Shown here: one piece after another, positions 10,834 to 17,339 of the stretch
Layout: each line of letters starts with the position of its first letter
Position numbering within the stretch: position 1 is the first letter of the stretch
Assembly (NCBI RefSeq): GCF_001677475.2
Contig: NZ_CP015229.1
Direction: 5' to 3' (one strand)
Source: Escherichia coli
GTDB taxonomy: Bacteria > Pseudomonadota > Gammaproteobacteria > Enterobacterales > Enterobacteriaceae
Length of the DNA stretch: 64,000 nt
Program-made: the position numbers and the translations under genes
Notes under the pieces: model-generated
Seen by the model: the letters and a program-made list of their open reading frames with translations, nothing else
Databases searched by the model: none
What the model was told of the DNA's origin: nothing

Positions 10834-10944
10834 AATGACTCTCCCCGTTTTCCGGGCAAGATCATACTGAACTTATCGGAACAGTAAAGCGCAAAATACC
10901 AGCAATTTGCGCTCAATAATCAATCTTTACACACAAGCCGTGAA

Positions 10945-12354
10945 TCACTCCATCCCCAGCTCTTTTAACTTCCGCGTCAGAGTGTTACGCCCCCAGCCGA
11001 GTAGCCGCGCCGCTTCCTGTTTATGTCCTTGCGTATATCGCAACGCGGTCGTCAGTAACGTCCGCTCCAGCTCAGGCTGCGCTTCGGAAAGCAGATTTTG
11101 ATGACCGGAACGCAGCGCCCTGTCTGCCCACTGCGCTAACAGCGTCGCCCAACTGTCCGGTTGCATTTGCGAAGTACTCTCCGCAACCGTTGATTCAAAC
11201 AGTTCACCGGGCAAATCCTGAATCAACACTTCCTGCCCGGCGGCCATCACCGTTAGCCAGCGGCAGGTGTTTTCCAGCTGGCGCACGTTGCCTGGCCACG
11301 CCAGACGCGTCAGAGCAGCTTCGGTTTCCGGATGCAGCAACTTCGCTTCTACGCCCAGTTCACGCGCGGCAACCTGTAAAAAATGGCGCGCCAGACGGGG
11401 AATATCTTCCCGACGTTCGCGCAGCGGCGGCAGATGAACGCGGATAACGTTCAGGCGGTGGAACAGATCCTCACGGAACTTGCCTTCCTGCACCCGCTGT
11501 TCAAGATTCTGGTGAGTGGCAGCGATAATCCGCACATCTACTTTCACCGGCGCATAGCCGCCAACGCGATAAAACTGACCATCTGCCAGTACGCGCAGCA
11601 AACGCGTCTGCACATCCAGCGGCATATCGCCAATTTCATCGAGGAATAATGTACCGCCATCAGCCTGTTCAAAACGCCCCTGACGAATGGTATTCGCGCC
11701 GGTAAACGCGCCTTTCTCGTGGCCAAACAGTTCTGATTCGATCAAATCTTTTGGGATAGCTGCCATATTCAGCGCGATAAACGGCGCTTTGGCGCGCGGA
11801 CTGTGGCGATGCAGGGCATGAGCGACCAGTTCTTTACCGGTACCGGATTCGCCGTTAATCAGCACGCTAATAGAAGAACGCGAAAGCCGACCGATAATAC
11901 GGAACACGTCCTGCATGGCTGGCGCTTCGCCGATGATATCGGTCGTTGGGCCGTTAAGCTGAACATTACGCGGCTGCTGCTGTTCCTGATAATGGCTGAT
12001 GGCGCGCTCAACCAGCGCCACGGCTTCGTCGATATCAAACGGTTTGGGCAGATAATCAAACGCCCCTTGTTGATAGGCGCTGACGGCAGCATCCAGATCG
12101 GAATGTGCGGTCATGATGATGACCGGAAGCATCGGATGGCGCTGTTTAATCTGCTTGAGCAGTGCCAGTCCGTCCATTCCCGGCATACGGATATCTGAAA
12201 GCAGCACATCCGGCGTTTTGCTCGCCAGCGCCTCCAGTACCTCCGCGCCGTTCTCAAATGTCGTACAGGTTAAACCCGCTCCAGCGAGCGCACGTTCAAG
12301 CACCCAACGGATGGAACTATCGTCATCGACTACCCAGACTATCCCTCGTTGCAT
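10945..12354 (-). CDS. glnG: Nitrogen regulation response regulator NtrC (sigma54 activator)
   Basis: 469 aa from ATG at 12354 ([12 protein letters not shown]...); receiver domain, AAA+ GESGTGKE, C-terminal HTH. Confidence 0.95.
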
Positions 12355-12365
12355 AAACGTCACCT

Positions 12366-13415
12366 TTATTTCCTGATAGGCAGGTAAACCGAGAACTCGG
12401 TATGCCCTGGCCAACTGGTAAATTCAATTTTGCCTGAATGCTGATCAATCAAATTACGAGCGATGGATAAGCCAAGCCCGGTGCCACCTTCGCGGCCGCT
12501 GACCATCGGGTAAAACAGCGTATCCTGCAAATGAGGCGGAATGCCCGGCCCGTTATCTTCCACATCAATCCGCGCCGCCAGCCGGTAGCGCTCGCCGTGT
12601 AAGGTCAGTTGAAACGCGGTGCGGGTACGCAGAATGATTTCACCGCCTTCCGGCCCCAGCGCCTGTAGCGCATTGCGCACAATATTCAGGAGCACTTGCT
12701 CAATTTGATCCGGGTCGTGCGCCAGTTCCGGCAGGCTGGGGTCGTAATCACGAATCAACCGCACGTTGTCCGGCAGTTCCATCGACACCAGCGTCACCAC
12801 ACGTTCAGCCACTTTATGAATACTTTCGGTAACGCGCGTACCGGGCAGCTGCGGCCCCAACAGACGGTCGACCAGATTTCGCAGCCGGTCCGCCTGTTCG
12901 ATAATCACTTTGGTATATTCGAGTAGTGACGGGTCAGGTAATGCTTTGCTGAGTAGCTGCGCCGCGCCCCGTAAACCGCCAAGCGGATTTTTAATCTCAT
13001 GTGCCAGGCCGCGCACTAAATCACGGGCAGCAACCTGCTGGGCGTGCTGTAGCTGTTCCTGACTTAAGCGGCGCTGGTTATCCATCGGTGCCATCTCCAG
13101 CAGGATCATGCCGTCCGGCATACGCTGGGCCGTCACAGAAAGGATATGCGAACGCCCGTCGATGACCAGCGTCACTTCGTTATCGGTAAAACCTTGCCCC
13201 GCCTCCAGACTTTCTTGCATCAGCTCGATATTTAATGAGAAGTAGCTCAACAGTTCCGGTAACGGCGTACCAAACAATTTGCGGGAGCTTTGGGCGAGCA
13301 GTTGTTGCGCGGCGGGGTTGGCGTAATGGATCGCCAGGTTGTCATCGATTAACAAAATACTGTTAATCAGCGAGTTGAGGATCTGCCCAGCATCGGGCTG
13401 CGTGCCTGTTGCCAT
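12366..13415 (-). CDS. glnL: Nitrogen regulation sensor histidine kinase NtrB
   Basis: 349 aa; PAS region plus HisKA/HATPase motifs. Confidence 0.95.
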
Positions 13416-13480
13416 AAAGCAGTCTCCTGAACAGGTTGCACCATTTTAGTGCATTATAGCTTTTTACGGATAAAAAGCGC
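13416..13480 (-). promoter_or_regulatory. glnL promoter with overlapping NtrC site
   Basis: Minus strand reads agctataatgcactaaaatggtgcaa: -10-like TATAAT and NtrC-like TGCACTAAAATGGTGCA. Confidence 0.5.
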
Positions 13481-13502: not shown

Positions 13503-13529
13503 GAAAAAAGCCCATGCAGAGATGGGCTG
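13503..13529 (-). terminator. glnA terminator
   Basis: Minus-strand hairpin cagcccatctctgcatgggc followed by a T-run. Confidence 0.75.
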
Positions 13530-13733
13530 AAATTTCCACGGCAACTAAAAACCAGTCCCATCAGGCTATTTTATTTGCCATTTTGAACCTGGGCAGTGCT
13601 CGAACTCCTCACGTACCAGTGTACGCTCCGGGTTCTGCGCGCTGTCCGTGTTCAAACTGGCTGCAACAATTACGCCAGATGGGCCTGGTTTGAACCTCCG
13701 GCGTTGTTGCGCCGGGTAGTACAACTTCAACTA
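13503..13733 (-). ncRNA. glnZ: glnA 3'UTR, candidate GlnZ 3'UTR-derived sRNA
   Basis: Inferred from position alone (glnA stop to its terminator); not independently recognisable from sequence. Confidence 0.35.
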
Positions 13734-15143
13734 TTAGACGCTGTAGTACAGCTCAAACTCTACCGGATGCGGAGTCATACGCACGCGGTCATCTTCTTCG
13801 CGACGCAGAGCGATGTACGCATCGATCGCTTCATCCGTGAACACGCCACCGGCTTTCAGGAACTCGCGATCCAGATCCAGTTCGTTCAGTGCTTCTTCCA
13901 GAGAGCCTGCAACCTGTGGGATCTCTTTCGCTTCTTCTGGCGGCAGGTCATACAGGTTTTTGTCCATGGCTTCGCCCGGATGGATCTTGTTCTTGATACC
14001 ATCAAGACCGGCCATCAGCAGGGCAGCAAAGCACAGGTACGGGTTAGCCGCCGGGTCCGGGAAACGTACTTCGATACGACGTGCTTTCGGAGAAGAAACC
14101 ACCGGAATACGGATAGACGCAGAACGGTTACGCGCAGAGTAAGCCAGCATTACCGGTGCTTCGTAGCCCGGGACCAGACGCTTGTAAGAGTTGGTGGTCG
14201 GGTTTGCCAGGGCGTTAATCGCTTTAGCGTGTTTGATTACGCCGCCAATGTAGTACAGCGCCTGCTCAGACAGACCTGCGTATTTATCGCCCGCGAACAG
14301 GTTAACGCCGTTTTTAGACAGTGACATGTGGCAGTGCATACCGGAGCCGTTATCACCGAACATCGGTTTTGGCATAAAGGTCGCAGTTTTACCGAAGCGG
14401 TGCGCTACGTTGTGCACAACATATTTGTAGATCTGAATTTCGTCAGCTTTTTTGGTCATGGTATTGAAGCGGGTAGCCACTTCGTTCTGACCAGCAGTCG
14501 CTACTTCGTGGTGATGGGCTTCAACCACCAGACCCATCTGTTCCATCACCAGACACATTTCAGAACGAATATCCTGAGCAGAGTCTACCGGTGGAACCGG
14601 GAAGTAACCGCCTTTCACTGCCGGACGGTGACCTTTGTTACCACCTTCGTATTGGGTGGAGGAGTTCCATGCGCCTTCGATATCGTCGATAGCAACGTGG
14701 GAACCGGAGATAGATGATCCGAAACGGATGTCATCGAACAGGAAGAATTCAGGTTCTGGCCCGAACAGTACGGTGTCGGCAATGCCAGTGGAACGCAGGT
14801 AATCTTCGGCGCGCTTCGCAATAGAGCGCGGGTCACGGTCATAGCCTTGCAGGGTGCCAGGTTCAAGGATGTCGCAACGGATAATCAGGGTAGAGTCGGC
14901 GAAGAACGGGTCAATCACTGCGGTGGATGCGTCTGGCATCAGCACCATGTCGGATTCGTTAATGCCTTTCCAGCCGCCAATCGAGGAGCCGTCAAACATT
15001 TTGCCTTCTTCGAAGAATTCAGCATTCACCTGATGAGCAGGGATAGTGACGTGCTGTTCTTTACCTTTGGTATCGGTGAAGCGCAAATCAACAAACTTCA
15101 CTTCGTGCTCGTTCAGCATCGTCAGTACGTGTTCAGCGGACAT
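13734..15143 (-). CDS. glnA: Glutamine synthetase
   Basis: 469 aa; sequence matches GlnA (adenylylation-site region present). Confidence 0.97.
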
Positions 15144-15224
15144 ACTTTAACTCTCCTGGATTGGTCATTGTCGTCGTGGTAACGAAATCTGCAATTATTT
15201 TGGCCGTGTCGCCGTAAAAAAGAT

Positions 15225-15370
15225 AAAGCGAAAACTGTGCCAACTTTTAAATTGCCCCTAAAAGGCGTTATCATGCTTAACATCGTGCAAAAGGGCTGCA
15301 CCATGATGTGAATGTTGCACCAATATAGTGCTTCAATGGAAACATTAAGCACCATATTGGTGCAATGACC
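15225..15370 (-). promoter_or_regulatory. glnA control region: sigma54 promoter glnAp2 and upstream NtrC sites
   Basis: Minus strand TTGGCACAGTTTTCGCT (-24 GG / -12 GC); NtrC-type palindromes gcaccatattggtgca (15350..15365) and tgcaccatgatgtgaatgttgcacca. Confidence 0.8.
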
Positions 15371-15515
15371 TTTGGATAACCCTTTTTATGCTCCGTGAAA
15401 GCGATCACAAAGGGACTCTGCAATACTTGTTTGCGGAGGATGTTTGTGATCCTGTTTTGTAGTGCGATTAATCCGTGTACAATAACGCGCTATTTCTAAT
15501 GCCTGAGGCAAAGTT

Positions 15516-17339
15516 GTGATCGAAAAATTGCGTAATATCGCCATCATCGCGCACGTAGACCATGGTAAAACCACCCTGGTAGACAAGCTGCTCCAACAAT
15601 CCGGTACGTTCGACTCTCGTGCCGAAACCCAAGAGCGCGTGATGGACTCCAACGATTTGGAGAAAGAGCGTGGGATTACCATCCTCGCGAAAAACACCGC
15701 TATCAAATGGAATGATTACCGTATCAACATCGTTGATACCCCGGGGCACGCCGACTTCGGTGGTGAAGTTGAACGTGTAATGTCCATGGTAGACTCAGTG
15801 CTGCTGGTGGTTGACGCATTTGACGGCCCGATGCCGCAAACGCGCTTCGTAACCAAAAAAGCGTTTGCTTACGGCCTGAAGCCGATTGTTGTTATCAACA
15901 AAGTTGACCGCCCTGGCGCGCGTCCTGACTGGGTTGTGGATCAGGTATTCGATCTGTTCGTTAACCTCGACGCGACCGACGAGCAGCTGGACTTCCCGAT
16001 CGTTTACGCTTCTGCGCTGAACGGTATCGCGGGTCTGGACCACGAAGATATGGCGGAAGACATGACTCCGCTGTATCAGGCGATTGTTGACCACGTTCCT
16101 GCGCCGGACGTTGACCTTGACGGTCCGTTCCAGATGCAGATTTCTCAGCTCGATTACAACAGCTATGTTGGCGTTATCGGCATTGGCCGCATCAAGCGCG
16201 GTAAAGTGAAGCCGAACCAGCAGGTTACTATCATCGATAGCGAAGGCAAAACCCGCAACGCGAAAGTCGGTAAAGTGCTGGGCCACCTCGGTCTGGAACG
16301 TATCGAAACTGATCTGGCGGAAGCTGGCGATATCGTTGCGATCACGGGCCTTGGCGAACTGAACATTTCTGACACCGTTTGCGACACGCAAAACGTTGAA
16401 GCGCTGCCGGCACTCTCCGTTGATGAGCCGACCGTTTCTATGTTCTTCTGCGTTAACACCTCACCGTTCTGCGGTAAAGAAGGTAAGTTCGTAACGTCTC
16501 GTCAGATCCTGGATCGTCTGAACAAAGAACTGGTACACAACGTTGCGCTGCGCGTAGAAGAAACCGAAGACGCCGATGCGTTCCGCGTTTCTGGTCGTGG
16601 CGAACTGCACCTGTCTGTTCTGATCGAAAACATGCGTCGTGAAGGTTTCGAACTGGCGGTATCCCGTCCGAAAGTTATCTTCCGTGAAATCGACGGTCGT
16701 AAACAAGAGCCGTATGAAAACGTGACTCTGGACGTTGAAGAACAGCATCAGGGTTCTGTAATGCAGGCGCTGGGCGAACGTAAAGGCGACCTGAAAAACA
16801 TGAATCCAGACGGTAAAGGCCGCGTACGTCTCGACTACGTGATCCCAAGCCGTGGTCTGATTGGCTTCCGTTCTGAGTTCATGACCATGACTTCCGGTAC
16901 TGGTCTGCTGTACTCCACCTTCAGCCACTACGACGACGTACGTCCGGGTGAAGTGGGTCAGCGTCAGAACGGCGTACTGATCTCTAACGGTCAGGGTAAA
17001 GCGGTCGCGTTCGCGCTGTTCGGTCTGCAGGATCGCGGTAAGCTGTTCCTCGGTCACGGTGCAGAAGTTTACGAAGGTCAGATTATCGGTATTCATAGCC
17101 GCTCTAACGACCTGACTGTAAACTGCCTGACCGGTAAGAAACTGACCAACATGCGTGCTTCCGGTACTGACGAAGCCGTTGTTCTGGTTCCGCCTATCCG
17201 CATGACTCTGGAACAAGCTCTGGAGTTCATCGATGATGACGAACTGGTAGAAGTGACTCCGACCTCTATCCGTATTCGTAAACGTCACCTGACGGAAAAT
17301 GATCGTCGTCGCGCTAACCGCGCACCGAAAGACGATTAA
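15516..17339 (+). CDS. typA: Ribosome-associated translational GTPase BipA/TypA
   Basis: 607 aa from GTG at 15516; G-domain [14 protein letters not shown]. Confidence 0.95.

Follow-up and report, generated by a model that had tools for sequence, protein, structure and literature searches.

The window, that is the whole stretch of 64,000 nucleotides that was analysed here, covers a part of the E. coli chromosome that a map of open reading frames and similarity searches placed in the hemN-glnG-glnL-glnA / typA region. The genes glnA, glnL and glnG are all intact, with glnL and glnG located downstream of glnA, and the gap between glnA and the divergently oriented typA/bipA gene harbours the control region described below. 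The features identified at this locus are compiled in Table 1.

Table 1. Features of the glnA-glnL-glnG region in the window. Centres are given relative to the putative glnAp2 start at 15216; mismatches of NtrC sites refer to the published 17-bp consensus.
Feature	Sequence	Position	Strand	Centre	Remarks
glnG (NtrC)		10945..12354	-		469 aa, full length; Response_reg, Sigma54_activat and HTH_8 domains
glnL (NtrB sensor kinase)		12366..13415	-		349 aa; protein identical to K-12; PAS, HisKA and HATPase_c domains
NtrC operator at glnLp	TGCACTAAAATGGTGCA	13437..13453			1 mismatch; third strong dyad in the window
-10 element of glnLp	TATAAT	13453..13458	-		last T is the first T of the operator
glnA 3'UTR, source of the GlnZ sRNA		13504..13733	-		230 nt, O111 type
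GlnZ terminator stem		13509..13528	-		
GlnZ seed	TTGCCGTGGAAA	13533..13544	-		next to the terminator
sigma54-like motif	CTGGCGTAATTGTTGCA	13662..13678	-		inside the O111-type insertion; 17.53 bits, near-consensus
glnA CDS		13734..15143	-		469 aa; protein identical to K-12; Gln-synt_N and Gln-synt_C domains
glnA 5'UTR downstream of +1		15144..15215	-		contains the Shine-Dalgarno sequence GGAGAG; 1 difference from K-12 (C to A)
glnAp2 start (+1), putative		15216	-		GC placed at -13/-12, +1 12 nt downstream of GC
glnAp2 sigma54 -24/-12 element	TTGGCACAGTTTTCGCT	15227..15243	-		GG at 15240-15241, GC at 15228-15229
Low-affinity NtrC site V region		15253..15269		-45	position from the literature; 6 mismatches; same as K-12; moderately conserved
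Low-affinity NtrC site IV	TTGCACGATGTTAAGCA	15274..15290		-66	TTGCAC kept; right half GGTGCG changed to GTTAAG
Low-affinity NtrC site III	ATTCACATCATGGTGCA	15297..15313		-89	5 mismatches; 1 spacer difference from K-12
NtrC enhancer site II	AGCACTATATTGGTGCA	15316..15332		-108	2 mismatches; 32 bp from site I
glnAp1 sigma70 start, approximate		15331	-		placed only by the 115-bp offset from glnAp2; NtrC sites I and II overlap
NtrC enhancer site I	TGCACCAATATGGTGCT	15348..15364		-140	1 mismatch
CRP site	TGTGATCGCTTTCACG	15394..15409			upstream of glnAp1; 1 mismatch to TGTGA-N6-TCACA; conservation of 90% or more across 75 species
glnA-typA gap		between glnA 13734..15143 (-) and typA/bipA 15516..17339 (+)			372 bp

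A comparison of this region with other E. coli sequences revealed a 100% match of 431 bases around the promoter to many complete genomes, where the stretch is annotated as lying between glnA and typA. Of 5426 complete E. coli genomes, 5425 contain it in a single copy. The gapless alignment of the promoter region with that of K-12 MG1655 showed 394 identical bases out of 401 (98.3%). Three of the seven differences lie in the right half of NtrC site IV, and the others are a C to T exchange in the spacer of site I, a G to A exchange in the spacer of site III, an A to T exchange in the spacer of the -24/-12 element and a C to A exchange in the 5'UTR. For these latter four, in the spacers of site I, site III and the -24/-12 element and in the leader, an effect on binding is not expected from their positions.

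Alignment of the GlnG protein with that of K-12 revealed a single substitution, H440Y (codon 11035..11037), within the HTH_8 domain, which represents the Fis-type HTH of the DNA-binding domain. Residue 440 is H in K-12, O157 and E. albertii, and likewise in 47 of 47 other Enterobacterales loci covering this residue. The exact GlnG protein of the window was found on 32 contigs in public data, which marks H440Y as a natural but rare variant. A megablast search for carriers with a 41-mer returned no match, a result that is confounded by flanking synonymous differences. At the DNA level, the glnG-glnL segment (10900..13000) is a divergent allele with a best identity of 98.1% to any of the 5426 complete genomes. 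Over 12 kb, 134 differences separate the window from the closest genome, of which 55 fall into glnG-glnL. Almost all of these changes are synonymous, with GlnL identical to the K-12 protein and GlnG deviating in one residue. This pattern suggests that the glnLG allele was acquired by recombination from a lineage of which few genomes have been sampled.

Upstream of glnA, the minus strand contains TGGCACAGTTTTCGCT at 15227..15242, within the -24/-12 element of glnAp2. It reads TGGCAC-AGTTT-TCGC and thus shows one mismatch to TGGCAC-N5-TTGC (TCGC for TTGC), which is also present in K-12, and its GG and GC dinucleotides are separated by exactly one helical turn. The first-pass annotation of this DNA had described a TGGCAC-N5-TTCGCT sigma54 promoter at glnA. 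The element itself is present, but the spacing has to be amended to N4 in front of TTCGCT, or canonically to TGGCAC-N5-TCGC. A scan with a position-weight matrix (PWM), which had been suggested as a check, was carried out with a log-odds PWM built from 134 E. coli ChIP-seq sites, glnA excluded (Bonocora et al. 2015, PMC4591121, Tables 1-2). These 134 sites score between 6.7 and 20.2 bits with a median of 14.4 bits. The glnAp2 element, with 15.74 bits compared to 15.85 bits for the K-12 version, lies inside the range of the bound sites and exceeds 78% of them, and the A to T exchange in its spacer accounts for a negligible change of 0.1 bit. Within the 64 kb, glnAp2 ranked as the third-best match. 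The top match, CTGGCGCGAATTCTGCA at 37652..37668 (-), is identical to the intragenic K-12 fdoI ChIP-seq site IS47 and served as positive control; the second-best match is considered below together with the 3'UTR of glnA.

The K-12 orthologue of the glnAp2 element, TTGGCACAGATTTCGCT, corresponds to the ChIP-seq site OS37, which is confirmed in EcoCyc, has a FAT value of 21 and is located 73 nt from glnA (PMC4591121). Placing +1 of glnAp2 at 15216, on the same strand as glnA, results in a leader of 73 nt before the glnA ATG, equal to the distance given for OS37. By analogy with this orthologue, sigma54 holoenzyme would be expected to bind at glnAp2 and to drive rpoN-dependent transcription; the rpoN gene itself lies outside the 64-kb window.

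NtrC sites were evaluated by counting mismatches to the published 17-bp consensus TGCACCAnnnTGGTGCA at 14 positions, and not with a PWM. Exactly three sites with two mismatches or fewer were detected in the 64 kb, namely site I, site II and the operator at glnLp. The palindrome GCACCATATTGGTGCA on the plus strand (15349..15364), which had been noted earlier as an example of at least two NtrC-type palindromes upstream of glnA, is part of site I, and sites I and II together bear out this statement. The centres of the five 17-mers relative to +1 at 15216 agree to the base with those published for NtrC sites I-V (-140, -108, -89, -66 and -45; PMC5159524). Sites I and II, with a distance of 32 bp, lie on one face of the helix and within the range of about 100-140 bp from the promoter that is expected of an NtrC enhancer. 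ChIP-seq of NtrC in K-12 identified peaks upstream of glnALG (71-fold) and of glnLG (PMC4066584), and classical work (Reitzer and Magasanik 1986; Ninfa 1987), as cited in PMC4066584 and PMC9731577, established sites I and II as the enhancer of glnAp2. Judging from these K-12 experiments, NtrC~P would also occupy sites I and II in the present allele.

The suggestion that a further NtrC-like site overlaps the glnL promoter also held. The dyad TGCACTAAAATGGTGCA directly abuts the TATAAT sequence of glnLp and shares one T with it, and both elements are identical in the window, K-12 and O157. PMC4066584 and PMC9731577 credit Ueno-Nishio 1984 with glnLp and its operator. Compared with the system described there, promoter and operator show no difference, whereas the 3'UTR upstream of them is of the O111 type instead of the K-12 type.

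The second promoter of glnA, glnAp1, is reported to start 115 bp upstream of glnAp2 (PMC1865078). With this offset, the CRP site is centred at -70.5 relative to glnAp1, in agreement with the position of about -70 for a class I site; according to one preprint, CRP binding at glnA has yet to be mapped by experiment. A sigma70 scan called neither glnAp1 nor glnLp, with no good match on the strand of glnAp1, because both promoters have poor -35 hexamers, and their positions therefore rest on the literature. On the opposite strand, a full-length match to the Rfam family ES222 (RF02755), a reported sRNA candidate, was found at 15327..15434 (+) with a score of 133 bits (gathering score 62). Lying antisense to the promoter region of glnA, this match shares sequence with NtrC sites I and II and with the CRP site, and its end falls on a hairpin (15416..15438). 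A literature search retrieved no publications on ES222.

To analyse the conservation of the region, species-representative genomes were scanned with exact patterns of the promoter core. This yielded 102 loci, 87 of which were followed by a glnA start, and resulted in 75 unique upstream sequences from about 25 Enterobacterales genera, the window and K-12 included. Given the search pattern, the -24/-12 element is necessarily conserved in these sequences and was not counted as evidence. The half-sites of sites I and II are conserved in at least 95% of the 75 sequences and the spacer columns in 50-87%. Retained half-sites with varying spacers are the signature of a binding site for a dimeric protein. 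Conservation of 90-100% was also found for the CRP site and for one half each of site III (GGTGCA) and site IV (TTGCAC); in site III, the GGTGCA half reaches at least 95% across species, whereas the left half does not. Salmonella, Klebsiella, Citrobacter, Enterobacter, Serratia and other Enterobacterales share with E. coli the -24/-12 element, the CRP site, the GGTGCA half of site III and the half-sites of dyads I and II. They differ in the dyad spacers and in the site IV/V region, and the Serratia group diverges between site III and the promoter. Far upstream of glnA, a block at 15440..15473 (GATTAATCGCACTACAAAACAGGATCACAAAC on the minus strand) is conserved to at least 90-95% across 75 Enterobacterales species; it probably belongs to the promoter region of typA/bipA.

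The sigma54/NtrC architecture at glnA had been called intact. This applies to the strong NtrC sites and to the -24/-12 element, but not to site IV, where the right half carries three substitutions, with all differing bases falling within 15276..15280. Searches with exact 40-mers detected the GTTAAG allele, which is found in the window, O157:H7 and others, in 2205 of 5426 complete E. coli genomes (41%), and the GGTGCG allele of K-12 in 3207 of them (59%). Other genera mostly carry GGTGCG or near variants of it, and GTTAAG was found only in E. coli, which identifies GTTAAG as the derived state. No published mention of a polymorphism in site IV was found in a literature search.

Based on the mechanism described for K-12 in the three-promoter model (PMC5159524, PMC1865078, PMC4066584, PMC9731577), the elements of this region would work together as follows. 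Under nitrogen limitation, NtrB, the product of glnL, would phosphorylate NtrC, the product of glnG. NtrC~P would then occupy the high-affinity dyads at -140 and -108 and oligomerise, and the oligomer, through DNA looping and ATP hydrolysis, would turn the closed complex of sigma54-RNA polymerase at -24/-12 into the open one, so that transcription of glnA would begin near 15216. The same two dyads overlap glnAp1, a weak CRP-activated sigma70 promoter, and would repress it, while the dyad over the -10 element of glnLp would repress this internal promoter of glnLG. The weak sites III-V between enhancer and promoter would modulate the output and set an upper limit to it when NtrC~P is high, acting as a "governor". 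For the present allele, binding, looping, activation and repression are all transferred from the K-12 literature and may be expected to proceed alike. Nothing was found that contradicts the textbook model of glnALG. The positions of the elements, the statistics, the conservation and the near-identity to K-12 all agree with the view of the first-pass annotation that this is the expected nitrogen-regulation circuitry. We therefore consider it almost certain, as judged from the DNA, that the region is the glnAp2/glnAp1 control region of E. coli, a well-known sigma54/NtrC circuit in a common natural allele.

Two other explanations of the motifs were weighed against this assignment. The motifs might be mere chance matches to a consensus without any regulatory role, and simple counts do fit such a view. 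The simple sigma54 consensus matched twice in the window with 3.2 matches expected from shuffled sequences, a 12-position NtrC pattern matched four times with 3.3 expected, so that neither was enriched, and a sigma54 score at least as high as that of glnAp2 (15.7 bits) is expected 0.66 times in a random stretch of 64 kb, i.e. the sigma54 motif alone is not rare. What makes it significant is where it lies, and in which direction it points, with respect to the NtrC dyads and glnA. As the simple IUPAC counts were not enriched, the fuller 14-position NtrC consensus, a test for clustering and the ChIP-derived sigma54 PWM were used. With the 14-position consensus, all of the three best sites in the window are located at glnA and glnL. 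Markov-1 random windows contained on average 0.35 sites with two mismatches or fewer; three such sites were reached in 1 of 300 random windows, and a close pair, i.e. two NtrC sites within 60 bp, in none of the 300. Together with the base-exact agreement with the published footprints, the half-sites that are conserved over about 25 genera while the spacers drift, and the ChIP-seq signals at the K-12 orthologues, this effectively refutes an origin by chance. Dyads I and II could also matter mainly as operators, repressing either glnAp1 or the divergent plus-strand ES222, instead of serving as the enhancer of glnAp2. They do overlap the published position of glnAp1 and the 5' part of the ES222 match, and repression of glnAp1 by NtrC is documented (PMC1865078, PMC9731577). 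However, the roles of enhancer and operator are not mutually exclusive, the classical studies cited above identify these sites as the glnAp2 enhancer, and in glucose no more than 0.8% of the transcription of glnA comes from glnAp1. It is thus very improbable that the operator function is the main one.

With the region assigned to the known glnAp2/glnAp1 circuit, the substitutions in site IV might still have changed its output. According to mutagenesis and modelling (including Atkinson 2002, as cited in later work), removal of site III and/or site IV raises the output only at high NtrC. The loss of the GGTGC half of site IV could accordingly weaken the governor in this allele, so that the output of glnAp2 would exceed that of K-12 at high NtrC~P, and the H440Y substitution may add to this. 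That three substitutions have accumulated in one site, in a derived and E. coli-specific state, speaks for such a re-tuning, as do the restriction of the published effect to high NtrC and the invariance of H440 in the 47 other loci. On the other hand, the right half of site IV also differs among genera (GACGTG, GACCTG, GGAGTG), which argues for weak constraint, and the presence of the allele in 41% of complete genomes suggests that it is near-neutral. Residue 440 of NtrC presumably lies outside the recognition-helix segment, which counts against the contribution of H440Y. On balance, a re-tuned governor appears doubtful to us, though it deserves more credit than the two explanations above.

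Downstream of glnA, the 3'UTR with GlnZ represents the O111 type of Miyakoshi et al. 2022 (PMC9731577), and in the window the O111-type insertion spans 13548..13700 and is flanked by AGGTTCAAA repeats. It forms an imperfect palindrome with a strong predicted RNA fold (z = -5.6) and belongs to a family of dispersed intergenic repeats of about 125-150 bp. At 80-90% identity, E. coli genomes contain a median of 5 such copies, and 8 at most. Other copies were found between nfi and hemE (strain YL3, L105:1486-1641) and between ycbX and rlmL (K-12, L107:3102-3344). NC_000913.3 has no annotation of the repeat at ycbX-rlmL, and matches to Rfam were insignificant only.

The second-best sigma54 match of the window, CTGGCGTAATTGTTGCA, resides in this insertion. 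It scores above glnAp2 and above 92.5% of the ChIP-bound sites, and only 0.135 sites as good as this are expected per 64 kb. Like glnA and glnL, the motif is on the minus strand, and it faces the GlnZ seed, the terminator and glnL. A 41-mer bearing it is present in 992 of the 5426 E. coli genomes (about 18%). Sigma54-like versions of the motif in other copies of the repeat are weaker, with 13.2 bits for the K-12 copy at ycbX-rlmL and 9.3 bits for another, and the former is absent from the sigma54 ChIP lists. No NtrC-like site was found upstream of CTGGCGTAATTGTTGCA, the nearest being the glnLp operator about 200 bp downstream. Replacement of the K-12 3'UTR by the O111 type in K-12 left the levels of GlnA and NtrC unchanged (PMC9731577), and the publications on GlnZ that were consulted do not mention the sigma54 motif. 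Occupancy of CTGGCGTAATTGTTGCA by sigma54 seems plausible, with the prospects about evenly balanced, whereas a productive and physiologically relevant sigma54 promoter at this position is unlikely. If sigma54 holoenzyme were bound at the motif and could be activated, with NtrC at the glnLp operator as one candidate activator, strains with this insertion would produce GlnZ as a primary transcript of roughly 150 nt, and perhaps additional glnLG mRNA. GlnZ would then be made independently of the processing of glnA mRNA, which would amount to a rewiring of the nitrogen circuit borne by a repeat element.

In comparison with the glnAp2/glnAp1 system of K-12 (Reitzer and Magasanik; Ninfa; Atkinson for the governor), the window shows the same locus, order of elements, spacing, positions and length of the 5'UTR, and it differs by the seven substitutions given above. 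The E. coli promoters glnK, glnHp2, nac and astC follow the same logic of a sigma54 -24/-12 element with upstream NtrC dyads and appear in the same ChIP-seq list, but according to the literature glnAp2 is set apart from them by its tandem p1/p2 promoters and the low-affinity governor sites. The glnAp2/glnAp1/glnLp circuitry is already known and ordinary, and the core finding adds nothing new. Among sigma54/enhancer promoters, glnAp2 has been studied most, and the window carries a common allele of it. The region is useful as a positive control, as the scan recovered a textbook circuit with base-level accuracy. A modest added value lies in the natural variation within E. coli: the two alleles of site IV, the rare H440Y variant of NtrC and the sigma54-like motif in the GlnZ insertion bear on the drift that a paradigmatic control region undergoes inside one species.
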